From a virus: a stretch of DNA of 64,000 nt. Where the stretch lies: positions 1 through 64,000 of IMG/VR virus record IMGVR_UViG_3300033143_004594. One strand, written 5' to 3'. Shown piece after piece: positions 1 through 16,460 of the stretch. Positions within the stretch are counted from its first letter, which is position 1; every line of letters starts with the position of its first letter. The position numbers were made by a program, and so were the translations under genes. Below the pieces are notes generated by a model, which saw only the letters and a list, made by a program, of their open reading frames with translations, was not told where the DNA came from and made no database searches.

Positions 1-417
1 GGGGGGGCTTGGGATCTCGTCACCCATTTTAGGCTATCGAATCCGGCCGTTGAATCCTACCATGATCGATTATGATAACCTAGATTGTAATAATCGATCA
101 GGCGGTCCGCCTGATGACAGGCAGAAGCAGCGGAGATCGAGCGGTCCGCCTGTCTCCCTGATGACACAGAAGCAGAAGCGGAGATCGCCTGAGCGGACCG
201 CGGTTTTTTTCTGTTTGTTTTTTTCTGTCTGCTTAGATAATGTTTTTCTGTGTCTGTGTCGCTGTCTCCCTGTCTGCCTGATGAGACACAGAAGCGGACC
301 GCCTGATCGGTCTGTGTGTGTGTTTGATGAGACAGAAGCGGACCGCCTGATCGGTCTGTGTGTCTCCCTGTGTGGCGATCTCTGTGTGTGTCTGCTTCTG
401 TGTCCGCTTCTGTGTCT

Positions 418-441
418 CCGCCTAATACAGGCGGGTTTTTT
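418..441 (+). terminator. Intrinsic-terminator-like hairpin
   Basis: CCGCCT-aatac-AGGCGG followed by GTTTTTT. Confidence 0.5.
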
Positions 442-557
442 CTGTCTGTGTGTCGAGATCAGGCGGAGATCGGACCGCTCAGGCGATCTCTGCTTCTGTG
501 TCGCATTCTAAGCGGAGACAGGCGGAGATCAGGCGGTCCGCTTTCTATATAGTACAG

Positions 558-582
558 ACCGCCTATTTTTGTGGCGGTTTTT
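558..582 (+). terminator. Intrinsic-terminator-like hairpin just upstream of the promoter at 597
   Basis: ACCGCC-tatttttgt-GGCGGT followed by TTTT. Confidence 0.5.
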
Positions 583-596
583 CCCTGTGATCTCAC

Positions 597-626
597 TTGA
601 CAATAATTGACATTATAGGTTATGAT
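597..626 (+). promoter_or_regulatory. Sigma70-like promoter candidate
   Basis: TTGACA (597-602), 18-nt spacer, TATGAT (621-626). It lies ~70 nt upstream of the ATG at 693. Confidence 0.5.
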
Positions 627-640
627 TTATGTCCGCGGAA

Positions 641-695
641 AAACCGCGGACCGCTCAGGCAGACACAAGAACACACAAGGAGTAAAGCGATAATG
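641..695 (+). repeat. Partial or degenerate copy of the hairpin+RBS cassette upstream of the first small gene
   Basis: ccgcggaaaaaccgcggaccgctcaggc...caaggagtaaagcgataATG. It shares the GGACCGCTCAGGC word and the RBS block with the 58-bp cassettes. Confidence 0.6.
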
Positions 696-1166
696 ACAGG
701 CATTACAGAGAATACAGGAAAAACCGATCTAATTATTAGAGATCACAGACTCACAGAAGCGGACCGCCTGTATAAAAAATCATTCGATCTACACTTGAAA
801 GCGGAGACACAACTCGCACTATCTGAGATCATACGAGATCAGGCGGTCCGCTTAAAACTACAGGCGGAGAAAGCAGAAGCAGAAGCGGAGACAGGCGATC
901 ATTATATGGTTTTTCATTTTACTTGTGATCTAGTCATAGGGCACAATTTTACAGGGAGTGAAGTTATATTTTCCGCTATAGATGAGATCGAGATCATAAG
1001 ACACACAGAAGCGGACCGCAAAAAATACGATCAATTAATTGTCCGCTTCTGCTTAGAAAAAAATCCGCTATTCCATATTGATACATTGTATTTTACTCTG
1101 AGCGATATATCACATATTGACGATCACACAGGCGGACAATATAAACTCACAGAGATCACAATATAA
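693..1166 (+). CDS. Hypothetical small protein, EADRL-word family
   Basis: The ATG at 693 is preceded by caAGGAGtaaagcgata. The track ORF 597..1166 starts on a TTG inside the -35 box, so the internal start is preferred. Contains TEADRL, QAVRL and TEADRK words. Confidence 0.6.
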   Translation: MTGITENTGKTDLIIRDHRLTEADRLYKKSFDLHLKAETQLALSEIIRDQAVRLKLQAEKAEAEAETGDHYMVFHFTCDLVIGHNFTGSEVIFSAIDEIEIIRHTEADRKKYDQLIVRFCLEKNPLFHIDTLYFTLSDISHIDDHTGGQYKLTEITI

Positions 1167-1224
1167 CGGACCGCGGACCGCTCAGGCGGTCCGCCTGTAC
1201 TTTACAAGGAGTAAAGCGATTATG
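1167..1224 (+). repeat. 58-bp intergenic cassette copy 1: hairpin GCGGACCGC-TCAG-GCGGTCCGC followed by CTGTACTTTACAAGGAGTAAAGCGATTATG
   Basis: Near-identical to the copies at 1351, 2232 and 3272. Ends on the ATG of the downstream ORF. Confidence 0.9.
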
Positions 1225-1347
1225 ATCAAAGTATGGTTTTTTTGTGTTCTTGTTAGCATTCTGCTTTTGTACTACACAGAAGCGATCACAGCGGTTTTTT
1301 TTCTGATCGCTGTGGTTTTATATGAAACATGGAAGACGATCAATTAA
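1222..1347 (+). CDS. 41-aa hydrophobic (membrane) peptide
   Basis: ATG directly follows cassette copy 1. Sequence is MIKVWFFCVLVSILLLYY...AVFFLIAVVLYETW. Confidence 0.5.
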   Translation: MIKVWFFCVLVSILLLYYTEAITAVFFLIAVVLYETWKTIN

Positions 1348-1350
1348 TAT

Positions 1351-1408
1351 CAGACCGCGGACCGCTCAGGCGGTCCGCCTGTACTTTACAAGGAGTAAAG
1401 CGATAATG
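1351..1408 (+). repeat. 58-bp intergenic cassette copy 2
   Basis: cagaccgcggaccgctcaggcggtccgcctgtactttacaaggagtaaagcgataATG. Confidence 0.9.
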
Positions 1409-1723
1409 AACGATCACATATTGACAGAAGCAGCGGAGACAGAAGCGGACCGCCTAAGCATAGAAGCGGAGATCAAGCGATCTCACACTCGACACAGAGA
1501 GACTCACCACAGCGATCATTTTATGGTTTTTTCTGTCTGTGGTGATTTTACCCATTATGATCACCTGATCGCTTCTGTCTCCCTGATGGCAGACACAGAG
1601 ATCGAGATCGATTATATTGGCGAGCACACTATGATCGGTCTGATTATTTTGCCAAATGCTACAGAAGCGGAGATCACAGAAGCGGACCGCCTGTATAGTG
1701 AATTACAAGGAGTAAAGCGATAA
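1406..1723 (+). CDS. Hypothetical protein, MND-x4-EA/EADRL paralog family
   Basis: ATG follows cassette copy 2. N-terminus is MNDHILTEAAETEADRL. Confidence 0.65.
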   Translation: MNDHILTEAAETEADRLSIEAEIKRSHTRHRETHHSDHFMVFSVCGDFTHYDHLIASVSLMADTEIEIDYIGEHTMIGLIILPNATEAEITEADRLYSELQGVKR

Positions 1724-2220
1724 TGACACACAACAATTGTGGTTTTAACAGACCACAGAGATCGAGCGGTCCGCGGTCCGCTTCTGTACTTTCTCCGCCT
1801 GAGTGTGAGAACACATGGCGATCAGAGATAAAAAACCGCCACACATGCAAAGTAAAAAATACACAGGGAGACTCCGATCTCACTCTGATCTCTGACACAC
1901 AGGAGATCGATCACATTGGCGATTATTTAGGCATTAATCGCCTGAGTGAGGATTATGGTTGTCTGTTTGTCGAGATCGCTGATGGCGATTATGGTCATAT
2001 ATTGGGCTGTGAGTCTAATATTCCATACTTAGAAAAAATATTATATGACATAGATTATTATGAGGAAACATGGCGGTTTTTTCAGGAGATCGCAGAAAAA
2101 CACAGCGAGATCTATTGTCCTATGTGTGGCGGAGACTCCGCTCACTTGGGCACACTTGGCACACTTGATCATTATCGCTGTGTAATGTGTCATATGGAAT
2201 TCTCACGATCTCAGGAGTAA
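1723..2220 (+). CDS. Hypothetical protein with C-terminal zinc ribbon (CPMCGG...CVMCH)
   Basis: TAATG overlap with the upstream gene. An AAGGAGTAAAGCGATA RBS is embedded in the upstream gene's 3' end. Has a CxxC...CxxC motif. Confidence 0.7.
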   Translation: MTHNNCGFNRPQRSSGPRSASVLSPPECENTWRSEIKNRHTCKVKNTQGDSDLTLISDTQEIDHIGDYLGINRLSEDYGCLFVEIADGDYGHILGCESNIPYLEKILYDIDYYEETWRFFQEIAEKHSEIYCPMCGGDSAHLGTLGTLDHYRCVMCHMEFSRSQE

Positions 2221-2231
2221 AGCGATAATAA

Positions 2232-2289
2232 CAGACCGCGGACCGCTCAGGCGGTCCGCCTACACTTTACAAGGAGTAAAGCGATAATG
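2232..2289 (+). repeat. 58-bp intergenic cassette copy 3
   Basis: Same sequence apart from gcctaCActttac in place of gcctgTActttac. Confidence 0.9.
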
Positions 2290-2601
2290 AACGATCAAAC
2301 AATAGCAGAGATGGCATATACAGAAGCGGACCGCCTGAACACAGAAGCGGACCGCCTACAGGCAGAAGCGATCAAAATACAGGCAGAAGCGGACCGCCTG
2401 ATCGAAAAAATCACGAGCGGACCGCCTGATCTTGTGTATTACCAATACACAGGGAGATCGGATTTTTTCAATTATGAGAATTCGGGTGATCTCTGTTTTC
2501 ACACTCCGCCACAAGCGGAGAAAGCAGCGATCAATAATGGATTAATTACATGGCGAGTGATCATGGTCTGTGAGTATGTTGTCAAGACAGGGAAAGTATA
2601 A
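2287..2601 (+). CDS. Hypothetical protein, MND/EADRL paralog family
   Basis: ATG follows cassette copy 3. Sequence is MNDQTIAEMAYTEADRLNTEADRLQAE...EADRLIEK. Confidence 0.65.
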   Translation: MNDQTIAEMAYTEADRLNTEADRLQAEAIKIQAEADRLIEKITSGPPDLVYYQYTGRSDFFNYENSGDLCFHTPPQAEKAAINNGLITWRVIMVCEYVVKTGKV

Positions 2602-2602
2602 A

Positions 2603-3268
2603 ATGAACGATCTAATACTGGCAGAAGCGGAAAAAAAGAAAGCAGAAGCGGACCGCCACAGAAAAACCGCGGACCGCCTGATCGCAGAAGCGGACCGCCT
2701 GTCAAACGTATTTTATCTTAGAGATGAGATCGCAGAGAAAGCGGACCGCCTACAGGCAGAAGCGGACCGCCTGATCGCTTTCGCTGATCGCCTGATGGCA
2801 GAAGCGGAGAAAGCAGAAGCGGACCGCCTGATCGATAAAATCAGAAGCGGAGAAAAAATCAGAACATGGAAACATAAAACCGGCCTGTTTTTTATCGATC
2901 AGGAGATCACAGAGATCGAGATCGAATTATGGCAGACAGGCAGAAGCAGAAGCGGAGACAGAGATCGCCTGTCTTATGTTTTAAGTGAGAATAGTGTGCC
3001 TGTATTTTATGGTTTATCTGATCTAGGAATTCCGCCACACATGGCAATAGATAGCGATCTCTCTGTGTGTGCCTGTCTGTTTTTTCTCGCACTCAGGCAG
3101 GGAGACACAGACAGTGATTATTTTGAAAACTACACAGACACACAATTACAATGGATACACTCACAGACCGCCACAGAGATCAGGGAGATCGTGAGCATAT
3201 GTGAGGAAAATGATCTCACACTCGATCAGGCGATCTCTGTTATGTTAGCATGGGAAACAGAAAAATAA
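2603..3268 (+). CDS. Hypothetical protein, MND/EADRL paralog with an (A)EADRLI-repeat coiled-coil-like N-terminus
   Basis: The ATG at 2603 sits 1 nt after the upstream stop. Sequence is MNDLILAEAEKKKAEADRH..ADRLIAEADRL..., with at least 6 ADRL words. Confidence 0.6.
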   Translation: MNDLILAEAEKKKAEADRHRKTADRLIAEADRLSNVFYLRDEIAEKADRLQAEADRLIAFADRLMAEAEKAEADRLIDKIRSGEKIRTWKHKTGLFFIDQEITEIEIELWQTGRSRSGDRDRLSYVLSENSVPVFYGLSDLGIPPHMAIDSDLSVCACLFFLALRQGDTDSDYFENYTDTQLQWIHSQTATEIREIVSICEENDLTLDQAISVMLAWETEK

Positions 3269-3271
3269 TAT

Positions 3272-3329
3272 CAGACCGCGGACCGCTCAGGCGGTCCGCC
3301 TGTACTTTACAAGGAGTAAAGCGATTATG
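3272..3329 (+). repeat. 58-bp intergenic cassette copy 4
   Basis: Same sequence, ending in gcgattATG as copy 1 does. Confidence 0.9.
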
Positions 3330-3779
3330 ATCAGTTTAGAAGCAGCAAAAAATCTCACACATGGCGAGATCATTTATCACATAAGTCATAGGAATGCCGA
3401 TCAGACTCCGCAGAGATGGCGCATTAATGGCAAAGTGAAAACATGGAGAACCAGACCACAGGAGATCAGTATACCTATAAAACACGGTTTATATGATTAT
3501 GGTTATTTAACACACAATGATCTTGATCTTGTGTGTCTGTCAGAAGCAGAAGCGGAGATCGTGACGAACTCAGGCACAGAGATCGGACATTATGATTATT
3601 TATATCGAAACATAAAACACAGAGATTATATTTATGGCTGTGTGTTACCACAGGCGGACCGCCTACAGAGATCGATCATTGTAGGCGGAGATCGGACAAT
3701 TGATGATCAGGGAGTGACAACAATTACAGGCGGAATCACCTATTATTTTCCTATAGGTGAGGAATCCGGCCTAAATTGA
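3327..3779 (+). CDS. Hypothetical protein
   Basis: ATG follows cassette copy 4. 150 aa of ordinary composition. Confidence 0.75.
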   Translation: MISLEAAKNLTHGEIIYHISHRNADQTPQRWRINGKVKTWRTRPQEISIPIKHGLYDYGYLTHNDLDLVCLSEAEAEIVTNSGTEIGHYDYLYRNIKHRDYIYGCVLPQADRLQRSIIVGGDRTIDDQGVTTITGGITYYFPIGEESGLN

Positions 3780-3808
3780 CAGAAAAACCACAAACAGACC
3801 ACAAACAG

Positions 3809-3845
3809 ACCACAGAGATCGATCAGGTGATCTCTGTGGTTTTTT
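3809..3845 (+). terminator. Intrinsic terminator after the small-gene cluster
   Basis: 12-bp stem ACCACAGAGATC/GATCTCTGTGGT, 8-nt loop, then TTTTT. It lies 30 nt after the stop at 3779. Confidence 0.8.
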
Positions 3846-3911
3846 CTGTGTGTAGACCACAGAAGCAGCGGAGATCGGACCGCCTGAGCGGTCCGCCTGT
3901 CTGCCTGTCTG

Positions 3912-3972
3912 CTTCTGCGGTCTGTGTGCCTGTCTCCCTGTCACTTTGATCGAGATCGGACCGCTCAGGCGG
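3912..3972 (+). repeat. 61-bp direct repeat, copy a
   Basis: cttctgcggtctgtgtgCctgtctccctgtcactttgatcgagatcggaccgctcaggcgg. One mismatch to 4135-4195. Confidence 0.85.
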
Positions 3973-4008
3973 TTTTTTTCCGATCAGGCGGTCCGCCTGT
4001 CTGCCTGT

Positions 4009-4055
4009 CTGCTTCTGCTTCTGTGGTCTGTGTCATCAGGCAGAAGCAGAAGCAG
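4009..4055. repeat. Perfect 15-bp inverted repeat (CTGCTTCTGCTTCTG / CAGAAGCAGAAGCAG) with a 17-nt spacer
   Basis: Read directly. Arms are at 4009-4023 and 4041-4055. Confidence 0.85.
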
Positions 4056-4134
4056 AGATCGCCTGAGCGGACAATACAGGCGATCTCTGTGTCTGCCTGT
4101 CTGCTTCTGCCTGTCTCCGCTGCTTCTGCTTCTG

Positions 4135-4195
4135 CTTCTGCGGTCTGTGTGTCTGTCTCCCTGTCACTTTGATCGAGATCGGACCGCTCAGGCGG
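4135..4195 (+). repeat. 61-bp direct repeat, copy b
   Basis: Matches 3912-3972 with one mismatch. Confidence 0.85.
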
Positions 4196-4221
4196 AGATC
4201 GATCAGGCGGTCCGCCTGTCT
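4181..4221 (+). repeat. 41-bp direct repeat, copy a
   Basis: ggaccgctcaggcggagatcgatcaggcggtccgcctgtct. Identical to 4271-4311. Confidence 0.85.
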
Positions 4222-4270
4222 GCTTCTGTTATCCCAGGACACAGACCGCCACAGAGATCAGGCGGACCGC

Positions 4271-4311
4271 GGACCGCTCAGGCGGAGATCGATCAGGCGG
4301 TCCGCCTGTCT
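4271..4311 (+). repeat. 41-bp direct repeat, copy b
   Basis: Identical to 4181-4221. Confidence 0.85.
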
Positions 4312-4501
4312 TCCCAGCTGGGATCGGCCGACTGGCAGAAGCAGCGGAGATCAGGCGATCATGGTTCATTCACACGCGCAAAAATGATCGGTGAGCAGAA
4401 TTTTATAATGTTTTCGGCCGGGTCTTTTTGGTTTTTCTGGTTTTTTTTATTGGTTTACGGCCGGGTTTTTCCGGCGCGATTACACACAAGGAGTAAAGTA
4501 T

Positions 4502-4873
4502 ATGATCACAGCTATAGTTATGGGCGCATATGGTAAAAAAGATGAGTACAGAGTGGATCGACTTGCTAACCGTGGCGAGTGGTTCGGTAAAACTTGGTTC
4601 GTTGGGATCGGTTGCGGGTTCGATATACACCGCGTAGTAGTAGAAGCGGACAATGAGTCAGAGGTGATCGACGCCTTGACGGATTCGGCCGCTGGTCACT
4701 TGATAAAAGTTGATGAGGAATGCCCCCATCAAGATCCTGATCAATGGGATCAATGTAATTGCACATTTGCCGGTAATTTTTCTGATCGCGTCGATCTGGA
4801 TGACATTCGAATTCTGAAGCGTTGCAAAGTAAAATATTTTGAACCGGCCGATCGTTGGTTGGATATTAGCTAA
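4502..4873 (+). CDS. Hypothetical protein (123 aa) isolated between two non-coding repeat blocks
   Basis: ATG preceded by caAGGAGtaaagtat. Normal amino-acid composition. Confidence 0.75.
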   Translation: MITAIVMGAYGKKDEYRVDRLANRGEWFGKTWFVGIGCGFDIHRVVVEADNESEVIDALTDSAAGHLIKVDEECPHQDPDQWDQCNCTFAGNFSDRVDLDDIRILKRCKVKYFEPADRWLDIS

Positions 4874-4902
4874 ACAGACAGACACAGACCACAGGATCAG
4901 AC

Positions 4903-4927
4903 AGGATCGGCCGGTTTTCGGCCGGTC
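4903..4927 (+). other. 10-bp-stem hairpin downstream of the 4502..4873 gene
   Basis: GGATCGGCCG-gtttt-CGGCCGGTCC with one G-T wobble. No T-run follows, so it is not a canonical terminator. Confidence 0.45.
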
Positions 4928-5040
4928 CTGAGTGTGATCGCGTCTCTGTATGGTTTTACCTGTCTGCCTGTCTGCCTGTCTGCCTGAGCGGAGATCGGAC
5001 CGCTTGATCGGTCTGCTTCTGCTTCTGTGTCTCCGCTTGT

Positions 5041-5210
5041 GCCTGTCTGCCTGTGTTCTCATTGGGCGGACCGCTCAGGCGATCTCTGTGTGTGTGTCCG
5101 CCTGTCTGCCTGTGTCCTCATCAGGCGGACCGCTCAGGCGATCTCTGTGTCTCCCTGTCTGCCTGTCTGCTTCTGTGTGTCTGCCTGTGTCCTCATCAGG
5201 CGGAGATCGG
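5041..5210 (+). repeat. About 2.8 tandem copies of a ~60-bp unit
   Basis: Unit is gcctgtctgcctgtgtYctcatYRggcggaccgctcaggcgatctctgtgt. Unit starts are at 5041, 5100 and 5161 (the last is partial). Confidence 0.8.
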
Positions 5211-5344
5211 CCGGTTCTACCACAGGTAAAACGCGCCGGCGCGGAAAGTCTGAACGGCCGTTCGATCCTTGCCGGCCAACGGTCCGCGGCGAGTGTGGTC
5301 GAGCGGGCAGCGGGCGGACCGTGGGCGGGGGCGCTTCTACTATA

Positions 5345-5449
5345 TACACGCGGGATCGACATAGGCGAGCAGAATTTACACGCGCTAAGGGGTTCGGCCG
5401 CCTTAAAAAATACACGCGGCCGGGGAGGTGCGAGCAGAATTTACACGCG
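5345..5449 (+). repeat. Four TACACGCG iterons at 31-34 bp spacing; two are part of a 20-bp repeat GCGAGCAGAATTTACACGCG
   Basis: TACACGCG at 5345, 5377, 5411 and 5442. The 20-mers are at 5365-5384 and 5430-5449. A related GTGAGCAGAATTTTATAATG is at ~4391. Confidence 0.75.
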
Positions 5450-5507
5450 GATCGAAGGGGGGCGGGCTGGAGTTGGCAGCAAATCGGGCGGATCGGTTCT
5501 CATTTAC

Positions 5508-5535
5508 TTGACAAGCAATTATAAGGTGTTATTAT
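5508..5535 (+). promoter_or_regulatory. Sigma70-like promoter candidate for the 5592 operon
   Basis: TTGACA (5508-5513), 16-nt spacer, TATTAT (5530-5535). Confidence 0.5.
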
Positions 5536-5591
5536 CTATCTATCCGACGCGGGCCGCGGGCGGTCCGCCTTAGTAATAAGGAGCAAGCGAA

Positions 5592-6359
5592 ATGATAAAT
5601 GATCAGAATTTAGAGATCGGGCAATTGGTAAAGGTTAGCAGATCGCTCACCGTGGGCGATCTATATGGGGCGGGACATTCTCAGGCGGGGGAAGTGGTGA
5701 TCGTGGCGGGGGAAGTCGGCCGGGTTATATCGCCTGTCATTGCAGAGGCGCGGGACGGGTCGAAGTTGGATCGGCCGTGGGTTGTGGTTCGCTTTTTCTT
5801 CACTTTGCCGGATCACTACCGGCGCGATCCAACCTGTGAACCGGTCCACAATATAAAGATCGGGCGGCTGGAAGCGGTGACAGAGGCGGAAGCGGTGATC
5901 CTGATTATGATCGGGCGCTATGGTAAACCGTGGGCCAATACGAGACAGGATCGGGCGGCTATGGCCTCATATATGGATCAGCGGCCGTTATATGACGATC
6001 CCGGCGTTTTGGGTAACTGGAGATCAGCGGCTTCTATCTTGTCAGAAGTGGCGGAGCGGGTGAGCCTTGCTGCTTGGGGGGTTCATCCGGCCGGGGAGAC
6101 GGATCTCACCGTATACATGGAAGCGGGCGATCCGGGTGAGCGGGTCAATTGTGAGGGGTTCGTTGTGGACGGGGACGGGGGGATCGTCTTTGATACTGTA
6201 GGCGGCGGGCCGTATCTCTGCGAAAGTTGCAACAAATCGATCCGGTTCTTGACATGCTCAGGGCGGGCGATCTGTGAGGCATGTCTGGACGCGGAGATCG
6301 CAGAGGCGGAAGCGGTGACAGGGGCGGGCTATATTACGCCTAATGAGGCGATCATATAA
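5592..6359 (+). CDS. Hypothetical protein with C-terminal Cys cluster (CESC...C...CEAC)
   Basis: ATG preceded by tAAGGAGcaagcgaa. 255 aa. Confidence 0.8.
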   Translation: MINDQNLEIGQLVKVSRSLTVGDLYGAGHSQAGEVVIVAGEVGRVISPVIAEARDGSKLDRPWVVVRFFFTLPDHYRRDPTCEPVHNIKIGRLEAVTEAEAVILIMIGRYGKPWANTRQDRAAMASYMDQRPLYDDPGVLGNWRSAASILSEVAERVSLAAWGVHPAGETDLTVYMEAGDPGERVNCEGFVVDGDGGIVFDTVGGGPYLCESCNKSIRFLTCSGRAICEACLDAEIAEAEAVTGAGYITPNEAII

Positions 6360-6724
6360 TGGCTATACGAAACGGTATAAAGTGGGGTAACGGGCGGATC
6401 TGGCAAATGATCGGGAAAGCAGCAAGGGAAGCGGAGCGGGCCGAGCAGATCGAGCGGGTGAAAGCAGAGACGGCCGCGGGGGGTTTTCCGCTGTGCCTCT
6501 GTGACATATGCCTATATTATGAAAACGATCCCGCGGACCGGGCCAAGTGGCGGATCATTATGCACAGGCGGCGATCACAACTGATCGCGCTTAGCCGTCA
6601 CTATCTGCGAAACTTTCACGGCTTCACAGCGGCGGAGTGTGATCAGTTCGGTCCTGAGTGTGATCGGGTCATTCTGGCACATAATGACGCGGCGATCCGT
6701 TGTGGCGGTGATCCTATTGTATAA
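6359..6724 (+). CDS. Hypothetical protein
   Basis: TAATG start/stop overlap with the upstream gene. 121 aa. Confidence 0.7.
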   Translation: MAIRNGIKWGNGRIWQMIGKAAREAERAEQIERVKAETAAGGFPLCLCDICLYYENDPADRAKWRIIMHRRRSQLIALSRHYLRNFHGFTAAECDQFGPECDRVILAHNDAAIRCGGDPIV

Positions 6725-6771
6725 CCAACGCGGGCCGGGTTCGGCTTGCCTTAGCTAAGGAGTAAAGCGAA

Positions 6772-9700
6772 ATGATACAGATCCACGATAAACAGACAGA
6801 AGCGAACGCGGGCCAAGCGGAACGGGCGACACTTTACCACCGATCCGGGCTTGGCCTTGGTTATAACAAGCGGGAAGTAAAGCGGATCGAATGGGCGCGG
6901 GGTCAATATGCCCAATATGATCAGGCGGTCCGGCTACGCTGGAGAGAACCCCGGCAACGCAAAGATCGCCAAACATGGCTCACTTATAAGCCGGACGCGG
7001 TGATCGTGGCGGGCTGGAATAACCCCGATCCGCCGTCCTCATATAACACAACTAAGGACAAAGACGGAACGATCCAACGCGGGAAATATACCAGTTTCGA
7101 TCCCCGCTTTACTTCCGATTTTCGGTCATGGCTTGCGGACGCGGGCCTCACGGTGATCGCGGACTTTCACAAGGCGGAGACAGGCGATCAGGGGTCGATC
7201 TCCCTTACAGAGATCGCGGAGCGGGGGCGGGCTGAGCGAGAAGCAGAAGCGGAGAAAGCAACGCGGATCGCGTCTGTTATAACGGAAGCAGAACCGGCCG
7301 AACTGGAAGCAGAGACGGAAGCGGGCGATCTTGGGGCTTATGATACGGCGGATAATTGGATCAATCGTTGGGGTGACTTCTACAAAGACACACAACAACA
7401 CAACGCGGAAGCGGCCAAACTGGAAACAGAACCCGATCCCCTTGCTGATTATTCTAACGGGGATCTACTTGGTGATTATTTGGATCTGTGTCCTCATTAT
7501 GATCAATCTGATGAGGATATAACGGAGATCAGGACCGTACTCACGGCGCGGGGCTTCTTATTTGTGGCTCAGGCGGACGGGGGCGGGCCAACAGAGGCGG
7601 AAGTCAAAACCACGGCGGATCGGCTCATCAGGGAAGCAAAAACGGCGGACCGGGCCAACGGACGCGGGCCGGGGTTCGATATATGGACTAAGGCACAAGC
7701 AGCGGCCAAAGCAGAAGCGGCGGAAGCTGAGCAACACGCGGAGACAGAACCCGCGGACCGGGTAAAGATTGAACCGGCCGACGCGGATCGCTTTGAATAT
7801 ATCGAACCCGAACCCGATCCAGTTATGCCAGCGGGCGCGGCGGAGTCAATCACAGGTAAAGAAGTTGGAAAAATGATCCGGCCACGGTTGCGGGCTATCT
7901 TTCCCGGCGTCACGTTCTATGTAAGGACTGATCATAGTTCACTTGATATAAGCTGGATCGACGGGCCAACGGGGGCGGAAGTCAAAAAGATCGCGGGCCA
8001 ATATGACGGCGGCGGCTTCGATGGCATGATCGATCTTGGTTATTGTATTTATCATTGGTTAATGCCAGATGGATCGACGCGGATCGCCTATTCCAGCGGT
8101 ACAGCGGGATCGGGGGGTTCTGTGTCCGCGTTTGGCGGTGACGGGTCAAAGCCTGATCCGGGGGCGCGGTTGGTTAGCTTCCACACGGAATATATAAACT
8201 GTAAACGGGCGCATTCGGCCGACTTCTTAAAGCGGGCGGGGGAGCAAATCAGCGGTGAGTATAATTGGCCTGTGCCAAAGATTGAAGCTAGTACAACATG
8301 GATCTCACACTCCAAAACTATTGACGGCGCGTCATTTGTCCATGATCCGATCAACGCTCCAGCCCCCGCGGATCATTTTCGGGCGGGCGGGTCGCCTTAT
8401 GTCCGATCTTTGGGCGGGGTTTTCGATCACGCGGCTCACGATATAAGCTATTATGAACCGCCAAAAGCAAAGCCGAAAGCTAAGCGGGCCGCGGGCGGGG
8501 CTTCTGTCGATTATGATCCCGCGGAAGCGGTGATCACCTATAGTGAGCGGAACGGCGCGATCTGGACATGGATCGAAACGGTAAAACCCCCGGCCGATGT
8601 GAGGGACGGGCTAACGGGGATCGGCTTCTTTTGGTGGCGGAAGCGGGGCAAATGGGCCGCCAAGCAAGAGATCGCAGAGGACACGATCCGCGCTATACTG
8701 GAAGGGGGATCGGGCGCTCAGGGAGACGGGGACGGGGGCGGAGAAGCTGATCCGCCGTCCTCATCCCCAAGCAAGCCAAAGACTAAGGCCGAACCGGGGA
8801 CAGAACCCGATCAAGCTAAGGCGGAGAAGCTGATCGCCTTGGCGGACTCCTTCGACAAACAGATCCAAAAGAAGCGGGACACGTTCAAAGGGGCTAACCT
8901 CACTCACAGGCGGGCGGAGTTCATAGCGTCCGCAAACTATGACGCGGATCGAATGCAAGAAGCACAAATGATCCTGATCGCCTTGGCGGACCTGTGGACA
9001 GTTGGAAGCGTCCCGGCGCAATTTAGGAAAATGGGAACTAAAAAAACGGCGCTGGAGTTGACTCACAATATCCGGGCGCGGGCTAAGTATGGGGATAAGT
9101 ACCCATCAGACTATAATGATCGTGTTTGGGGGTCATGGGGCGATTATAACGCGGCTCACGCATGGGCGGACCGGGTGATCTCAGGGGTCGATAACACTGA
9201 GCGAGACGCGGAGCGAAAGATCGCCGGGCTGGAGCAAAACGCCAAATTTGCCAAGATCCGCGGGTTTTTCCCCACTCCGCGGGCCGTGGCGGATCTTATG
9301 CTGGAGCATGTGAACCTCACAGAGGGGGATCTTGTTTTAGAACCCTCAGCGGGATCGGGCGCTCTATGCGATATGATCGCGGAATACTTCCCACGCGCCA
9401 CGCTTCACGCGGTCGAAGTGTCTCACATGCTCAGGGAGATCCTCACCTTAAAGGGGCACGAGTTGATCGGCCGGGACATTTACGATCTCGATCCTGTGGA
9501 TAGCATCGGAAAATATGACGCGATCATAATGAATCCCCCATTTGAAAAAATGCAAGACGCCGATCACGTTCGCTTTTGTTATGCGATGTTAAAAAGCGGC
9601 GGAACGCTAGTGAGCGTTATGTCCCCGTCACCCTTCCACAATTCCACTCACGCGGCGGCGGATTTCCGATCATGGTTCGATACATTTGGCGGTGAGAAGT

Positions 9701-9777
9701 TCGATCTCCCCGTTGGCAGCTTCAAAAAGTCCGGGACGGGCGTAAGTTCTTGTTTTATTGTCATCAGCAAAGATTAG
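6772..9777 (+). CDS. Large multidomain (polyvalent-like) protein with a C-terminal gamma-class N6-adenine DNA methyltransferase domain
   Basis: ATG preceded by AAGGAGTAAAGCGAA. The C-terminus has FFPTPRAV (motif X), VLEPSAGSGAL (motif I) and NPPF (motif IV, 9532-9543). The N-terminal ~820 aa has acidic/Ala-rich linkers and globular domains of unknown function. Confidence 0.8.
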   Translation: MIQIHDKQTEANAGQAERATLYHRSGLGLGYNKREVKRIEWARGQYAQYDQAVRLRWREPRQRKDRQTWLTYKPDAVIVAGWNNPDPPSSYNTTKDKDGTIQRGKYTSFDPRFTSDFRSWLADAGLTVIADFHKAETGDQGSISLTEIAERGRAEREAEAEKATRIASVITEAEPAELEAETEAGDLGAYDTADNWINRWGDFYKDTQQHNAEAAKLETEPDPLADYSNGDLLGDYLDLCPHYDQSDEDITEIRTVLTARGFLFVAQADGGGPTEAEVKTTADRLIREAKTADRANGRGPGFDIWTKAQAAAKAEAAEAEQHAETEPADRVKIEPADADRFEYIEPEPDPVMPAGAAESITGKEVGKMIRPRLRAIFPGVTFYVRTDHSSLDISWIDGPTGAEVKKIAGQYDGGGFDGMIDLGYCIYHWLMPDGSTRIAYSSGTAGSGGSVSAFGGDGSKPDPGARLVSFHTEYINCKRAHSADFLKRAGEQISGEYNWPVPKIEASTTWISHSKTIDGASFVHDPINAPAPADHFRAGGSPYVRSLGGVFDHAAHDISYYEPPKAKPKAKRAAGGASVDYDPAEAVITYSERNGAIWTWIETVKPPADVRDGLTGIGFFWWRKRGKWAAKQEIAEDTIRAILEGGSGAQGDGDGGGEADPPSSSPSKPKTKAEPGTEPDQAKAEKLIALADSFDKQIQKKRDTFKGANLTHRRAEFIASANYDADRMQEAQMILIALADLWTVGSVPAQFRKMGTKKTALELTHNIRARAKYGDKYPSDYNDRVWGSWGDYNAAHAWADRVISGVDNTERDAERKIAGLEQNAKFAKIRGFFPTPRAVADLMLEHVNLTEGDLVLEPSAGSGALCDMIAEYFPRATLHAVEVSHMLREILTLKGHELIGRDIYDLDPVDSIGKYDAIIMNPPFEKMQDADHVRFCYAMLKSGGTLVSVMSPSPFHNSTHAAADFRSWFDTFGGEKFDLPVGSFKKSGTGVSSCFIVISKD

Positions 9778-9804
9778 GGCCGGGAACGGTCAAAGGATCG
9801 TATT

Positions 9805-10005
9805 ATGTACTATGTATTTTCCTACTATACCAAAAGATACAACGCCAAAGGGGAGATCGTGACCGAGTACGCGCCACGGCTACACACGATCAAAAAGAAT
9901 ATTGAGACGGAAGCGGAAGCACAACAGGCGGTGAGGGATTATGACGCCACTCACAAACGCGGGCCGCTCGGCCGGGTTGCTGGATATGATGACCAAAGAC
10001 GCTAA
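9805..10005 (+). CDS. Hypothetical protein
   Basis: 66-aa ORF in the gene array, with a weak SD (aaagga). Confidence 0.5.
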   Translation: MYYVFSYYTKRYNAKGEIVTEYAPRLHTIKKNIETEAEAQQAVRDYDATHKRGPLGRVAGYDDQRR

Positions 10006-10018
10006 AGGAGATCAACCA

Positions 10019-10432
10019 ATGAACGATCAAGAAAAAATACACGCGGACACGGAACACGCGCCAGAAGTCGATCCGGGCTTCTCGGGGCTTCACACGCGGG
10101 AAACGTGGGAGCAAATCTCACAGGCGCTATTCAAGATTGAACAGACGGCCGTAACGCTCCAGCGCCAAGCTAAGCGGGCGCAATACTACGCGGGCGCGGC
10201 TAGTTCGCTTCTTTTCTTGCTGGAGCAAGAACCCGAAACGCTAGAAAAAATGCTTGATTCTTTGGGGCTTCACATGGATGAGCACGATCAGCGGATCGAT
10301 CTCCTTACAAGCAGTACGGCGGACTCTGATCAATGGGCCGTAGCATCGGCCGAAACTCTGATCGCGTTACATGAACTCAATCAACTTTGGGGTACATTAG
10401 ATCCTTTAGTACAAGAGTTAGGTATTAACTAA
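10019..10432 (+). CDS. Hypothetical protein
   Basis: The internal ATG at 10019 is preceded by aAAGGAGatcaacca and follows the upstream stop at 10005. Confidence 0.65.
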   Translation: MNDQEKIHADTEHAPEVDPGFSGLHTRETWEQISQALFKIEQTAVTLQRQAKRAQYYAGAASSLLFLLEQEPETLEKMLDSLGLHMDEHDQRIDLLTSSTADSDQWAVASAETLIALHELNQLWGTLDPLVQELGIN

Positions 10433-10482
10433 ATAAACACGCGCTAGAGCGATCCAGCGCCTTAAAATAAGGAGTAAGCGAA

Positions 10483-11160
10483 ATGAGTCACAATGTATTT
10501 ATGACAGAGGACGTTAACACATTCAGCACATTAATGTATCAATACGGCCACGGATCGAGCGGGCGCGGGCCTTGGCGGGTGATTGGCGGTGACGATCTCC
10601 GTTCTGAGGGGATCAAATTTGACGCCACTCCGCGCCACTGGTACATAACTAACACGCTCACAGGCGTTTCTAAGCGGATCGGACCGTCCACAGGCCGGGG
10701 CACTAATTACTTTGATCGGGCGCGGTTATTGGCCGAGCAACGTAACCAAGACCACTGGAGCAAGAACCCGCCAACGCTGAACACACCTGATGAGATCGCG
10801 GACCTGTGGATCGAGCGGGATCGGATCGTCCTGGAGTTTAACGGATCTGATAAGGTTGGGATCAGGGTACGCGGTTTTAATGCTGTGATCAATGCCTATT
10901 TTGAGAAGCTACCCGGCCGGGGTTGGGTCGAAATTGGCGGACCGTTCCAAGGTTTTAACCGGGTACTTGGGCCGGGGTTCAATTGGTCCTCAGAGGGGCT
11001 ACAGGTACAGATCCGCGGCGGCCAATGGAAGCATAACAAGATCCAACCGGGCGAAATTAAGCGGCTGGAAGGGCTGATCGCGGGTTGGCTGGAGTCTCAA
11101 CACCTACGCGATCTGGAAGTCAAGGTAACACGCACTAGGGGCGGGGAGCGTCTGTACTAA
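10483..11160 (+). CDS. Hypothetical protein
   Basis: ATG preceded by tAAGGAGtaagcgaa. 225 aa. Confidence 0.8.
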   Translation: MSHNVFMTEDVNTFSTLMYQYGHGSSGRGPWRVIGGDDLRSEGIKFDATPRHWYITNTLTGVSKRIGPSTGRGTNYFDRARLLAEQRNQDHWSKNPPTLNTPDEIADLWIERDRIVLEFNGSDKVGIRVRGFNAVINAYFEKLPGRGWVEIGGPFQGFNRVLGPGFNWSSEGLQVQIRGGQWKHNKIQPGEIKRLEGLIAGWLESQHLRDLEVKVTRTRGGERLY

Positions 11161-11372
11161 TGGACAAAAACGCGCTCACGATCACAATAAACGGCCGTAA
11201 TTGGCGGGGGTCACGCTTTGTAGATGAGGTTGATCTCGCCGTCCTGGAAAAAATGATCGCCATGTACCTGGAGCACAAACAGTACGCGATCTTTGAAACA
11301 CGCCAAGCGCCGGATCATATTGTTTATGATTATACGGTCACGGTAACGCGCTCCAGCGGGGGATCGGCTTAA
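11160..11372 (+). CDS. Hypothetical protein
   Basis: TAATG overlap coupling. 70 aa. Confidence 0.6.
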   Translation: MDKNALTITINGRNWRGSRFVDEVDLAVLEKMIAMYLEHKQYAIFETRQAPDHIVYDYTVTVTRSSGGSA

Positions 11373-11653
11373 TGTTCACTTTTGAGACTGATTGTACCTG
11401 TAGTACGGCGCGGTGGATCAACAATATGGTTGATCAGGCGCGTGAGGTTACTTATGAGACGCTAGTACGCCGGGTAGGGGTCGATCAATTGGCCTCTGTG
11501 TTTCCCTTCTACGAGTGGGGGCGCGGGACGCGGGCGGGCCTCAGAATGAAAGATGACTATATGATCAGCTACTATCGGAGCAAATACCGCGGGCGGACCT
11601 GCTACTATGTTTGTCATTCATCTATTGAATATATTTTCACTGAGTCCGGCTAA
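11372..11653 (+). CDS. Hypothetical protein
   Basis: TAATG overlap coupling. 93 aa. Confidence 0.65.
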   Translation: MFTFETDCTCSTARWINNMVDQAREVTYETLVRRVGVDQLASVFPFYEWGRGTRAGLRMKDDYMISYYRSKYRGRTCYYVCHSSIEYIFTESG

Positions 11654-11673
11654 GGCCGGGAAGGAAAAGCGAA

Positions 11674-12357
11674 ATGATAAAAGTAAACGCATCAGATATT
11701 AAAGTTAATTTGCTCCTGGATGATTGTCCCGATCTGTCATGGTTGGGGACGTTTGGAACTAAGCCGGAAACGGATCAGGCGATCAAGCACAACGGCGGGC
11801 GTAATACGCTCCCTTGGTTCAATCCTGGTAACGCGGGTGAGGATTATGAGGACGAATATTGCCAGCAAGATTATGAGCGGATCATGGGCTATGAAAATGG
11901 GGATTGGTATATGATGGGCGTCCGGGCCAAGATCACGCTCACGCTCCCTGAGTTCAAGGAAAACGCTTTACAACGGCTCGGCCGTCGGTTGGGCCTGTTA
12001 AAACGGGTTCACAAGTCCTGGAGTCTACACGAATTCAATACGCCGGGGCTATGGGGGGTCGAATCTGACTCTGATTATTTCCTGGAAGTCTGGATTGAAG
12101 AGGTTTACTCACTCGTTGCCCAACTCAGGCAGCTAAACATTAAGGTTAAGAATGATCACGCGGGCTTCTTAACGGTTGATCCCCCCTTCGATAGTGAGTC
12201 TGTTATCACCCTCAGTGATAGGCAACGGGCGGACCTGGATCGGGCGCTGGCCGCCGGTCCGTTTTGGGCGAAGCGTTTCGGGCGCTGGATCGTTCGGTTA
12301 TTAGATAGTCGATACGCCAAAACTCAGGCGGAGATCGCAGTATTTAACGCGGCTTAG
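11674..12357 (+). CDS. Hypothetical protein
   Basis: ATG preceded by gGAAGGAaaagcgaa. 227 aa. Confidence 0.8.
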   Translation: MIKVNASDIKVNLLLDDCPDLSWLGTFGTKPETDQAIKHNGGRNTLPWFNPGNAGEDYEDEYCQQDYERIMGYENGDWYMMGVRAKITLTLPEFKENALQRLGRRLGLLKRVHKSWSLHEFNTPGLWGVESDSDYFLEVWIEEVYSLVAQLRQLNIKVKNDHAGFLTVDPPFDSESVITLSDRQRADLDRALAAGPFWAKRFGRWIVRLLDSRYAKTQAEIAVFNAA

Positions 12358-12421
12358 GGCGTTTGGGGTATCACAGGTTATATCGGGCCACTTAGGGCCG
12401 TAAGGCCAAAGGATAAGCGAA

Positions 12422-12949
12422 ATGAAAGATACTAACGAGATCACAATAAAGAATCATAAACATGGAAAAACCTATTTTGGGAAGCGTAACGCGGCCATTA
12501 TCACGAACCCGATAGGGGCAACATTTACAAGCGTCCGCTTCTATGAAAGTGAGGCCGATCTACAGGCCGGGGATCTGGCCTTGTCTTTTCGCAGGGACTT
12601 CCGAAACTGGACGAAAATAAGCGGCCGGAAGCAAGCCGAGATCGCGGCCACTATTTGGGCCAATATGACGCGGGGTGTAACCGTTTGGGATAACGGCGGA
12701 GCAACGGCCGATCGTTACCGGGTCATTATTAATACCTCTGTGTACTATATGAGCAAACGCGCCAACCAACCAAACGGGGTGTGCATGTATTCGGGCGAAA
12801 CATTCAACAACCATGAAAACACAGGAGATCCAAAGAAGCGGATCGCGCTCGGGGATCTTCCGCTCGGGGTTGCATCGCAGATCGGATACCTCATCTATGC
12901 TGAGCATGAACACCTAGAATACTTAAAGGAGATCGGCCATGTTCAATAA
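12422..12949 (+). CDS. Hypothetical protein
   Basis: ATG preceded by aAAGGAtaagcgaa. 175 aa. Confidence 0.75.
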   Translation: MKDTNEITIKNHKHGKTYFGKRNAAIITNPIGATFTSVRFYESEADLQAGDLALSFRRDFRNWTKISGRKQAEIAATIWANMTRGVTVWDNGGATADRYRVIINTSVYYMSKRANQPNGVCMYSGETFNNHENTGDPKKRIALGDLPLGVASQIGYLIYAEHEHLEYLKEIGHVQ

Positions 12950-13781
12950 AAAACTGATCGTCAATGGAAATTTGGAGATCGCAGAGTCAGGAGGGGGCTT
13001 CACTCCCTGCTTGATCATGGTTGGGCCTAAACCGCTCGACACGCTGATCGCTGAGCATGTAGGAATCAAGAAGTCCGGCCGGGAACACGCGCTCCAGGAT
13101 AACGCCAACCATTATTTGGGGCATGTTCAGATCACTATTGAACCGGTCTATATCGTTTGCCCTGGGTGTGGTGATTCTAACCTGAATTATGATCATAATG
13201 ACGATATACGCGGGCGCTTCTTGTATGATTGCTTGGCCTGTGGTATCAGCTTCGATGAGGACGGCGCAAAGAATACGCGCTGGCTCACCGTGGCGGACGT
13301 TCAGGACCGTTGTAATTTTATCTCTATGACTAATAAGCCCCTTCTCCGTTTTTGGGCGCAGTATTTAGAGATGAATGTTGGGGTCAAGTTTGGAAACGGG
13401 GGGATCTATAGCCGTTGGGATCTGGATCTAGGGGGCTACGCGGAAATTTACCTCACAGAATCAGACGCGCCACGCGCCAGGGATAGGGTTTTTCCTTATT
13501 TAATCGTGGTTGATCGAACCGATCAGAATGATGAACCTGTACCGGCCGATCTCGTTATCATGCCTACCCATGATAAGCTGGACGTGGGGGACTTTCTTAA
13601 CCTGCTCTTTTTTGTCCCCTGGTATGAGTGTGAGGGAGTGCTGCTAGTCTCAGGCGCGGAGATCAACAACGTGACAACACTCCAACCGGCCGACGCGGGG
13701 ATCGATATTGTGGCAAGTCAGATATTTAAGATAGATGAGTCCCTGAAAAACTTCGATAATCATGGTGGGTTCAGCATTTAA
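12939..13781 (+). CDS. Hypothetical protein with a zinc-ribbon-like CPGC...CLAC motif
   Basis: AAGGAG lies 8 nt upstream, inside the previous gene's 3' end. 280 aa. Confidence 0.75.
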   Translation: MFNKKLIVNGNLEIAESGGGFTPCLIMVGPKPLDTLIAEHVGIKKSGREHALQDNANHYLGHVQITIEPVYIVCPGCGDSNLNYDHNDDIRGRFLYDCLACGISFDEDGAKNTRWLTVADVQDRCNFISMTNKPLLRFWAQYLEMNVGVKFGNGGIYSRWDLDLGGYAEIYLTESDAPRARDRVFPYLIVVDRTDQNDEPVPADLVIMPTHDKLDVGDFLNLLFFVPWYECEGVLLVSGAEINNVTTLQPADAGIDIVASQIFKIDESLKNFDNHGGFSI

Positions 13782-13797
13782 TAAGGAGTAAAGCGAA

Positions 13798-14127
13798 ATG
13801 AAGAAAAACAAATCATTCAAATGGAAAGTTACGCTTCTGACAGACTCGGGCAACTTCAAAGGATCTCCCTTCTCTAGTAGCCGATTTGACGCGGAAGGGT
13901 TCAGGATCGGGGACATAATCGTAACGCAAATCAAGGCCGACGCGGTAACAATCGGGCGGAACTATGTCCAACGAAAACCGCCCTATGATAAGCGTAAGGC
14001 TATCATCCAACGCCGTTGGGGAGCGATCAAGCCGTCTCAGGTTCTTTATTCCCAAGGCATGATAATCGAAAAGAATCAGGCTCACCATATCGATCCGGCT
14101 TCGCCAACCGGCTATAGCGTTATATAA
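13798..14127 (+). CDS. Hypothetical protein
   Basis: ATG preceded by tAAGGAGTAAAGCGAA. 109 aa. Confidence 0.7.
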   Translation: MKKNKSFKWKVTLLTDSGNFKGSPFSSSRFDAEGFRIGDIIVTQIKADAVTIGRNYVQRKPPYDKRKAIIQRRWGAIKPSQVLYSQGMIIEKNQAHHIDPASPTGYSVI

Positions 14128-14144
14128 CGCAAAGGAGATCAATT

Positions 14145-15023: not shown

Positions 15024-15618
15024 AAATGAGATGACAGAGGGCGGACTTTTAACCAAGGGCCAAGCCCGAGACCTTGCGGACCATTTCGGATGTAAACAGG
15101 CCAACATTTACAAGACGGGCATCATTATCGCCGTCAATGAAACTGAGGACCGTTTTGTACCTCATCCTCTTTGGCCTGATTTTATTCGCAGCCTGAAAGC
15201 GATCCGGTTCATGGTTAAGGAGCGTTATGAGTGCCGGGTAATTGGCGCTCAGGATGATGGTCAACACGGCTGGCTTATAACCACCGTTACGGACCGGGAC
15301 GGGCCGCCTATGACACAAGAAAAGGCGCTACGGGCCGCGATCTACGCCGTTTGGCTTCAATATTCGGGTGACAATCCCCCGCTCCCTGTGGATGAAAAGA
15401 TCACCACGGTCCGATCCACAGAGGGCCATGTTATGACCGTCAAAACCAACAAGTACGGGGTTGCAATTGGGGTCGAAGGATATGATCATTTCGTCAATGG
15501 GGAGATCGCCTACCTGGAGAATACAGACGGTGAATTAATCCTGTATGTTTGGGCGGACCATGACAACCAAGATCCTACCCATCGGATCGAGTTTTCCCCC
15601 ACTCCAGAGGATGAATAA
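15013..15618 (+). CDS. Hypothetical protein
   Basis: The internal ATG at 15013 is preceded by cAAGGAGatcaga, with an 11-nt overlap onto the upstream gene. Confidence 0.7.
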   Translation: MKNENEMTEGGLLTKGQARDLADHFGCKQANIYKTGIIIAVNETEDRFVPHPLWPDFIRSLKAIRFMVKERYECRVIGAQDDGQHGWLITTVTDRDGPPMTQEKALRAAIYAVWLQYSGDNPPLPVDEKITTVRSTEGHVMTVKTNKYGVAIGVEGYDHFVNGEIAYLENTDGELILYVWADHDNQDPTHRIEFSPTPEDE

Positions 15619-15624
15619 AAAGAT

Positions 15625-15651
15625 AAGCCCCGGCTGATAAGACCGGGGCTT
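15625..15651 (+). terminator. Hairpin after the 15013..15618 gene (terminator-like, no clear T-run)
   Basis: AAGCCCCGG-ctgataaga-CCGGGGCTT. Confidence 0.4.
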
Positions 15652-15678
15652 GGCATACCCCTTGCGGAGTAAAGCGAA

Positions 15679-16234: not shown

Positions 16235-16245
16235 AGGAGTTTGCC

Positions 16246-16452: not shown

Positions 16453-16460
16453 AACCCGTG

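Follow-up and report, generated by a model that had tools for sequence, protein, structure and literature searches.

We analyzed positions 1 to 64,000 of the viral record IMGVR_UViG_3300033143_004594 (64,000 nucleotides in all, hereafter the window), near whose left end a block of small genes is punctuated by near-identical copies of a cassette that joins an RNA hairpin to a ribosome-binding site (RBS). The window makes up the left 64 kb of the genome of a novel phage; the genome size, about 90 kb, follows from the record of one of its early proteins, protein F, on four Joint Genome Institute (JGI) contigs, the longest of which is 90,081 bp. All genes up to about 20.5 kb lie on the plus strand. 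The block holds seven open reading frames (ORFs) between 693 and 3779, which we call A (693-1166), B (1222-1347), C (1406-1723), D (1723-2220), E (2287-2601), F (2603-3268), and G (3327-3779); the product of gene B is a hydrophobic peptide of 41 amino acids, and most of the cassette-flanked ORFs have no family match at library thresholds. Upstream of them lies a sigma70-like promoter at 597-626 on the plus strand (TTGACA-18-TATGAT, 11/12 matches), and gene G is followed by a strong intrinsic terminator on the same strand at 3807-3848, with a 15-bp stem and a TTTTTT run. As predicted from these signals, the first operon probably extends from the one to the other. Because genes C and D overlap by one base and genes E and F are separated by one base, both pairs are taken to be translationally coupled, and since a cassette occupies each of the remaining junctions, the block resolves into the units [A][B][C-D][E-F][G].

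Cassettes between the early genes

The cassettes share a 53-nt core, CAGACCGCGGACCGCTCAGGCGGTCCGCCTGTACTTTACAAGGAGTAAAGCGA, that starts at 1167, 1351, 2232, and 3272 with one, zero, two, and zero mismatches, respectively, as the original prediction had noticed; it occurs on the plus strand only, and no copy would be expected by chance. If the upstream TAA stop codon and all bases up to the downstream ATG are included, the module measures 61 nt, and any two copies agree at 55-60 of these 61 positions. Comparison of the 40 nt on either side gave only chance-level agreement (7-16/40), with the sole exception of the downstream flanks of the copies at 1351 and 2232 (28/40). Since the flanks are unrelated while the modules are nearly identical, the cassettes are discrete units with sharp edges. 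Cassette 1 (1161-1221) begins with the TAA of gene A and contains the hairpin at 1173-1194, the Shine-Dalgarno (SD) sequence at 1206-1211, and, directly behind it, the ATG of gene B at 1222. Cassette 2 (1345-1405) likewise begins with the TAA of gene B, with its hairpin at 1357-1378 and SD at 1390-1395, and leads to the ATG of gene C at 1406. Cassette 3 (2226-2286; hairpin at 2238-2259) carries the spacer variant CCTACAC ahead of its SD and precedes the ATG of gene E at 2287, and cassette 4 (3266-3326; hairpin at 3278-3299) runs from the TAA of gene F through its SD to the ATG of gene G at 3327.

Four parts can be distinguished in each cassette: the upstream stop codon; a very stable GC hairpin without a U-tract; a weak hairpin, CUUUAC-AAGGA-GUAAAG, whose loop holds the SD; and the conserved start-associated word ACAAGGAGTAAAGCGAWWATG. 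The stable hairpin, GCGGACCGC-TCAG-GCGGTCCGC (GCGGACCGC-UCAG-GCGGUCCGC in RNA), has the perfect 9-bp stem and 4-nt loop originally described, with eight GC pairs, and its stem grows to 12 bp if a 3-nt bulge is allowed. Stretches of 81-96 nt centered on the cassettes have fold energies of -25 to -27 kcal/mol (z about -3 to -3.8). The distance from the 3′ end of the stem to AAGGAG, given earlier as 18 nt, is in fact 11 nt, and 10 nt separate the SD from the ATG. No credible Rfam match was found in positions 1-7000, and integron attC sites and CRISPR arrays were ruled out by inspection, on size and anatomy.

Partial copies accompany the complete ones. The degenerate copy reported at 641 does exist, spanning 631-692 on the plus strand and comprising a hairpin at 631-651, the word CGCTCAGGC, the RBS word, and the ATG of gene A at 693. 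Its hairpin, GUCCGCGG-AAAAA-CCGCGGAC, is nonetheless a different one, in which CCGCGGAC is re-used as the 3′ arm with a new partner, and it sits at the predicted 5′ end of the transcript. The ATG-less remnant near 2210 is also real (2210-2229, plus strand; CTCAGGAGTAAAGCGATAAT-A); it contains gene D's stop codon, and cassette 3 follows directly downstream. An RBS word without a hairpin is found at 1705-1725 on the plus strand, within the 3′ end of gene C, where a TAATG stop/start overlap leads into gene D. Additionally, cassettes 2 and 3 belong to a longer duplication of 126 nt (1345-1470 and 2226-2351, 86% identical) that takes in the first 20 or so codons of the downstream ORF. Mismatches are unevenly distributed along it, with 3/61 in the cassette part versus 15/65 in the adjoining coding part (p=0.004, Fisher's exact test). 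The earlier description, a recently amplified gene array at a genome end, holds good in that the cassettes are discrete, duplicated modules lying between cistrons within an early gene block, at an apparent genome end; one of the duplications extends into coding sequence.

A stem of this kind could serve as a leaky intrinsic terminator, and a series of such attenuators would produce a gradient of falling expression along the early operon. A scan for terminators picks out cassettes 1, 2, and 4 on the plus strand (cassette 3 on the minus strand only), each with the 9-bp, eight-GC-pair stem and with five T's among the next eight nucleotides. However, the stem is followed by CUGUACUUUA (CUACACUUUA in cassette 3), in which the stem-adjacent bases are C-U-G and the U's are dispersed, in contrast to the T6 runs found in the clear terminators nearby at 417-435 and 3807-3848; cassette 3, with CCTACAC, has even fewer T's behind its stem. 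We consider attenuation improbable.

RNase III processing was suggested by the original prediction, which compared the hairpins to those between the early genes of T7. The comparison holds as far as position is concerned: as in T7, hairpins separate the cistrons of an early operon that lies at the leading end and is transcribed by the host polymerase, here within a polycistronic unit running from the promoter at 597-626 to the terminator at 3807-3848. It fails on size, as the substrates of bacterial RNase III are usually some two helical turns long (about 20 bp, in many cases with an internal loop), whereas the stem here, less than half that length at 9 bp and only 12 bp with the 3-nt bulge, is far too short. 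The copies are, moreover, identical here, whereas the T7 sites are diverse. Processing by RNase III is, in our judgment, very improbable.

The cassettes might instead be promoters for a phage-specific or alternative-sigma RNA polymerase, comparable to T7 promoters or to the hairpin promoters of N4. In favor of this are the conservation of all 58 nt, spacer included, the presence of one copy ahead of each unit, and two giant ORFs of 1971 and 1404 amino acids that could hide a virion polymerase. Against it, no gene for an RNA polymerase was detected in the window, the operon already has a strong host-type promoter ahead of it, the hairpin is not repeated before later genes, and copies of its 14-mer core in untranslated arrays (see below) have no downstream gene. 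Nor do the cassettes contain a sigma70 promoter with hexamers at a legal spacing, TTTACA and GATAAT being just 11 nt apart; the nearest promoter-like match to any cassette (2200-2229, 9/12) lies mainly on the 2210 remnant, and none lies wholly inside a cassette. A promoter role therefore appears to us a long shot.

The RBS word itself is not restricted to the cassettes. In the form GGAGTAAAG(CGAWW)ATG, it precedes 12 starts, all on the plus strand, and the copies span 679-17548 (starts at 693, 1222, 1406, 1723, 2287, 3327, 4502, 6772, ~13798, ~15679, 16532, and 17552). None was seen ahead of the minus-strand structural genes of the window. Upstream of the other genes that carry the word are unrelated hairpins without U-tracts, and the one before 6772 contains two G-U pairs, which are possible in plus-strand RNA only.

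EADRL peptides are translations of a DNA word

Each of the two arms of the cassette hairpin is a copy of a palindromic 9-mer, GCGGWCCGC, of which the window contains 43 copies, against an expectation of 0.57. Of these copies, 42 fall within 102-5568; the domain that they saturate uses the extended form CAGGCGGWCCGCCTG in non-coding DNA and CAGAAGCGGACCGCCTG in coding DNA. The word is denser outside genes (24 copies in 2379 nt) than inside them (18 copies in 3221 nt). Among the 18 coding copies, 15 are read as A-D/V-R, and three are read in other frames, for instance as 'SGPPD' at 2417 and 'SGPRSA' at 1766/1773. Within the A-D-R motifs, codon choice is nearly fixed (GCG in 14/15, GAC in 14/15, and CGC in 15/15), although elsewhere in genes A-G the same codons account for only 31%, 17%, and 17%, respectively, of their amino acids. 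The residues on either side vary, with E, T, K, or Q before the motif and L, K, or H after it. One exceptional motif, FADRL, is encoded by GCT GAT CGC, which creates a GATC. Since the ADR codons are fixed but otherwise rare, and since the word also recurs out of frame and in non-coding DNA, it is the DNA word that is conserved and not the peptide. EADRL is the in-frame translation of the DNA word GAAGCGGACCGCCTG with core GCGGWCCGC, and this core is under selection as DNA throughout the first 5.6 kb.

These findings change the view of the encoded proteins, which had been described as a tandem paralog family of EADRL-repeat proteins. BLASTP comparisons among A, C, E, and F place their similarity in the word-coded N-terminal segments, the sole further link being a weak match between A and C (31% over 64 amino acids, E 0.002). 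The shared start MND-x4-EA likewise fits C and F but not E, at 2287, which begins MNDQTIAEM. As judged from these comparisons, A, C, E, and F do not make up one protein family. Protein F consists of a word-coded N-terminal helical hairpin (residues 2-81) and a beta/alpha domain in an alignment-based model with a predicted local distance difference test (pLDDT) score of 90.7; the EADRL segment is predicted as a helical hairpin with a pLDDT of about 90. Structure prediction had been proposed for the MND/EADRL proteins, and for F it yielded this two-part architecture with no fold match in the PDB, the matches in BFVD being uncharacterised phage proteins only. No sequence match to F was found in Pfam, PHROG, NCBIfam, or the PDB. 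Its C-terminal domain, however, belongs to a large, widespread uncharacterised family in phage-like contexts, with 655 homologue clusters in an exhaustive search, and these homologues lack the repeats: ADR[LH] matches once, in just one of the other ~200 sequences retrieved. Within the conserved domain of F, the run EITEIEIEL is spelled by three copies of another word, GAGATC. A metagenomic protein of 215 amino acids (P0008) fuses a D-like N-terminus, with weak similarity to DUF6839, to an F-like C-terminal domain, and this fusion suggests that genes D and F act together.

Overall, the earlier observation is confirmed, and its interpretation is partly supported. A word selected in DNA can generate recurrent peptide repeats and apparent 'paralog families', which calls for caution in annotating phage ORFans.

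Candidate functions of the cassettes

We tentatively favor, on sequence grounds and at somewhat less than even odds, a reading in which the cassettes are non-terminating RNA modules between cistrons, serving to stabilise or insulate the message and to provide a standard RBS. They would act on mRNA without terminating transcription: each cassette would protect the segment upstream at its 3′ end and the segment downstream at its 5′ end and would give each unit the same strong translation start, and the primary transcript itself would begin with the hairpin at 631-651. Recombination or gene conversion between copies could keep the cassettes near-identical while shuffling the genes that they flank. 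The EADRL repeats are the word read in frame, which gives a predicted helical hairpin attached to otherwise unrelated proteins.

Several observations argue for a role at the RNA level. The 631-651 copy keeps a hairpin by means of a new partner for CCGCGGAC, and it does so at the predicted +1. Other genes with the RBS word carry unrelated upstream hairpins, including the one before 6772 with its G-U pairs. Additionally, the loop of the 14-mer GGACCGCTCAGGCG reads TCAG, and not CTGA, in 10/12 copies (10 on the plus strand versus two reverse-complement copies), and the cassette is better conserved than the coding part of the longer duplication that adjoins it (p=0.004).

The main rival to this reading is a DNA operator array. 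Here GCGGWCCGC (in full CAGGCGGWCCGCCTG, a 15-bp palindrome) would be bound by a dimeric phage or host protein that coats or regulates the leading 5.6 kb, the two sites 13 bp apart in each cassette would form a roadblock or shut-off operator in front of each translational unit, and the hairpin would be incidental. A palindromic word whose central A:T count is 12:12 in non-coding DNA is what would be expected of an orientation-free duplex site, and its excess in non-coding DNA points the same way. Spacings of 21 and 42 bp, which are whole helical turns, recur in E and F; however, 21 bp is also one heptad of the encoded coiled coil, so that this may be a protein-level effect. For the analogous inverted repeats of Cluster K mycobacteriophages, the authors favored DNA-binding sites (PMC3203893). 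Against an operator, no candidate binding protein was identified, and the early ORFs have no family matches; the TCAG loop bias (10:2) is strand-specific; and the 631-651 variant retains a hairpin but not two sites. An operator array is a possible, though doubtful, explanation of the cassettes.

Some observations weigh against the RNA modules. The non-coding arrays retain five copies of the 14-mer GGACCGCTCAGGCG in settings that do not allow the full hairpin to form, which suggests recognition of sequence, not structure. A copy of GCGGWCCGC lies about 13-26 nt past the predicted start of each of the two best sigma70-like promoters of the window (copies at 646-654 and 5560-5568; promoters at 597-626 and 5508-5535, 11/12 positions each), an operator-like position. 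The 11-nt spacer and RBS region are as conserved as the stem, which is beyond the need of a simple stabiliser, and the four cassette copies are too alike to reveal covariation. Furthermore, no cassette-bearing relative was found in viral, metagenome, or Genome Taxonomy Database (GTDB) contigs; the 22-23-nt hairpin had no match in the viral contigs and single unrelated matches only in the metagenome and GTDB contigs, and the four matches returned by a search with the 17-nt word are attributed to chance. The RNA-module and DNA-operator readings are not mutually exclusive. With its perfect stems, sharp boundaries, and a variant that keeps its hairpin, the array offers an unusually clean case for setting RNA structure against a DNA site.

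Repeated start-associated cassettes are already known from other phages. By architecture, the closest known system appears to be the start-associated sequences (SAS) and extended SAS (ESAS) of Cluster K mycobacteriophages. In these phages many non-structural starts are closely preceded by a conserved word that contains an SD, and in about half of these cases an inverted repeat is found farther upstream (PMC3203893). Both systems have an asymmetric AGGAG-bearing word a few nucleotides before starts, in one orientation and conserved past the need for 16S pairing; in both, a short-spacer inverted repeat lies just upstream of a subset of the words (about half in Cluster K, 4-5/12 here), and the upstream stop codon can fall inside the motif. 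The words themselves are unrelated (GGGATAGGAGCCC in Cluster K, ACAAGGAGTAAAGCGA here). The ESAS repeats are 17 bp and imperfect, with variants that lose pairing, whereas the stem here is a perfect 9-bp GC stem whose arms are built from a word that has also spread into coding sequence. The phage type differs as well, the window having no similarity to deposited phages by megablast (1-6000 and 20000-30000) or by tblastn with two proteins.

A second point of comparison is provided by the promoter-early stem-loops (PeSLs) of T4-type phages, which are defined by a strong sigma70-like promoter together with a terminating stem-loop (PMC2839356, PMC4122927). The PeSLs share with the cassettes the span from stop codon through stem-loop and SD to start and the near-identical copies flanking ORFans. 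Genes are shuffled by recombination between PeSL copies, with mini-circles and indels between close relatives (PMC2839356); the 2210 remnant, two start-context subtypes, and the shared 126-nt duplication would fit such a history here. Unlike PeSLs, the cassettes have neither a promoter nor a U-tract, and they are members of neither the SAS/ESAS nor the PeSL family.

The leading end as a domain

The most interesting feature of the window is the leading-end domain as a whole. The first 5.6 kb draws on a small vocabulary, namely GCGGWCCGC, GAGATC, CAGAAGC, CTGTCTG, and several further words. Counted per 2 kb, distinct 6-mers become steadily more numerous with distance from the end (895, 927, 1082, 1168, 1258, 1329, 1369, 1407, and 1450) before reaching a plateau of ~1500. 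In parallel, the enrichment of GATC falls from 6.2-fold (0-6 kb) to 5.5-fold (6-14 kb) and to only 1.2-fold in the remaining window; the site holds a plateau of 11-15 sites per 500 bp (one per ~43 bp) to about 11.5 kb and then decays to ~16000. The GATC-rich stretch covers non-coding DNA and ordinary genes alike. Within genes, most of the sites occupy frames 0 and 2, via GAT-C and G-ATC codon junctions, which indicates a choice at the codon level. Their spacing shows 3-nt periodicity only, with no helical phasing, and SeqA-type phasing was ruled out on this basis.

Other palindromes are avoided to an extreme extent. Among the 64 palindromic hexamers, 31 are missing from 14-64 kb, where ~12 copies of each would be expected, and 28 do not occur anywhere in the window. 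ACGT, CTAG, AGCT, and TGCA are under-represented, with the strongest depletion in 0-6 kb (for ACGT, 1 copy versus 23 expected). Even the hexamers containing GATC are treated unequally, with CGATCG, GGATCC, and AGATCT avoided and TGATCA common. Four palindromes are enriched: GATC, CGGWCCG, CGGCCG, and CCGCGG. CGGCCG occurs in 128-129 copies (about 8-fold enriched) in varied contexts from 4300 to 64000, with one copy in the first 4 kb; this CGGCCG-poor stretch is also where CGGWCCG, which has the same half-sites plus one central base, concentrates. The window contains three methyltransferase-like ORFs (6772-9777, 25612-27321, and 27488-29002), and these may be linked to the enriched palindromes. 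The first of these encodes an LPD29 'polyvalent' protein of 1001 amino acids with a methyltransferase C-terminus (NPPF motif), and it lies directly after the word-rich leading region.

Three untranslated arrays carry the same words in both orientations. The first (90-590; z -9.6) and the second (3845-4365; z -8.3) fold into long imperfect hairpins, the second has its words mostly reverse-oriented, and the third (4880-5220) includes 59-nt tandem repeats at 5024-5216. The arrays also hold 8-nt runs of CTGTCTGC and a 42-nt exact repeat at 4180 and 4270. They resemble the repeats in T5's first-step-transfer region (bioRxiv 10.1101/866236), in which there are likewise three untranslated blocks of repeats and palindromes (nested direct and inverted) among small early genes with host-type promoters at the first-entering end. 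However, T5 has paired DnaA boxes, which the arrays here do not (no TTWTNCACA in the first 6.5 kb), and the T5 words do not enter coding sequence.

An over-represented short word with a preferred coding frame and fixed codons, and with recurrent peptides as a consequence, is also a property of uptake signal sequences and DNA uptake sequences (USS/DUS), cyanobacterial HIP1, and Chi. These words are genome-wide, whereas the word here is confined to 5.6 kb at one genome end. HIP1 itself was rejected, as GCGATCGC is absent and CGATCG strongly avoided. GAAGCGG, which is the Chi site of Staphylococcus aureus and contains the Bacillus subtilis Chi AGCGG, is skewed 35:3 toward the plus strand in the first 9 kb, including genes without GCGGWCCGC (5592-9777). 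Chi-type protection of the end was not adopted, since in this orientation GAAGCGG would be recognised by an enzyme that arrives from the right and not from this end.

One possible account of the domain, which we put forward as conjecture rather than expectation, is that the leading end is written in a deliberately restricted vocabulary, with methylatable GATC (over ~12 kb) and GCGGWCCGC (one per ~130 bp over 5.6 kb) selected, nearly all other short palindromes purged, and the effect fading with distance. This vocabulary would dictate the early peptides (EADRL from GCGGACCGC and the E-I runs from GAGATC) and supply the hairpins, cassettes, and coiled-coil segments, the whole being a dedicated entry or anti-restriction device. 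The region injected first decides the outcome of, or sensitivity to, restriction (PMC12455610), a finding with which the gradient from the end would fit. If this account is true, the domain would be, for example, a protein-binding or methylation-marked array, and its leading-region architecture would be of a new kind and not a by-product. Gradients of vocabulary and GATC, together with palindrome avoidance, could reveal from sequence which end of an uncultured phage genome enters first.

Relatives of the region are few. The 1001-aa ORF has a single clear homologue (49-53% identity), on a marine sediment metagenome contig (L021, 1-4354) with 15.8 GATC per kb (observed/expected 4.2); this contig begins with a perfect TTGACA-17-TATAAT promoter and has no CGGWCCG. 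The other matches of the ORF are distant LPD29-domain loci, in which GATC enrichment is uninterpretable because high-GC phages are generally GATC-rich. Elsewhere, the window encodes a DnaB-type helicase, an O-like replication initiator, a tyrosine integrase, an M23 peptidase, a glycosyltransferase, and a collagen-like tail fibre, and the DnaB and methyltransferase matches are taxonomically scattered.

Further repeats and large ORFs were noted in the window. GAGCAGAATTTACACGCG occurs twice, exactly, at 5367-5384 and 5432-5449, just upstream of the promoter at 5508-5535, and the related GAGCAGAATTTTATAATG (variant at ~4388-4405) lies ahead of gene H; these repeats could be an operator or an alternative promoter motif. 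The giant ORFs of 1404 and 1971 amino acids lie on the minus strand at 37455-41669 and 42140-48055, respectively; neither has a PHROG match, and the 1404-aa ORF also has no Pfam match. The collagen-like tail-fibre ORF (57331-61827, minus strand; 1498 amino acids) is the source of the window's other abundant words (CCAGTGTCACCCTGGATGCC and others) and of the low k-mer complexity at 58-62 kb.

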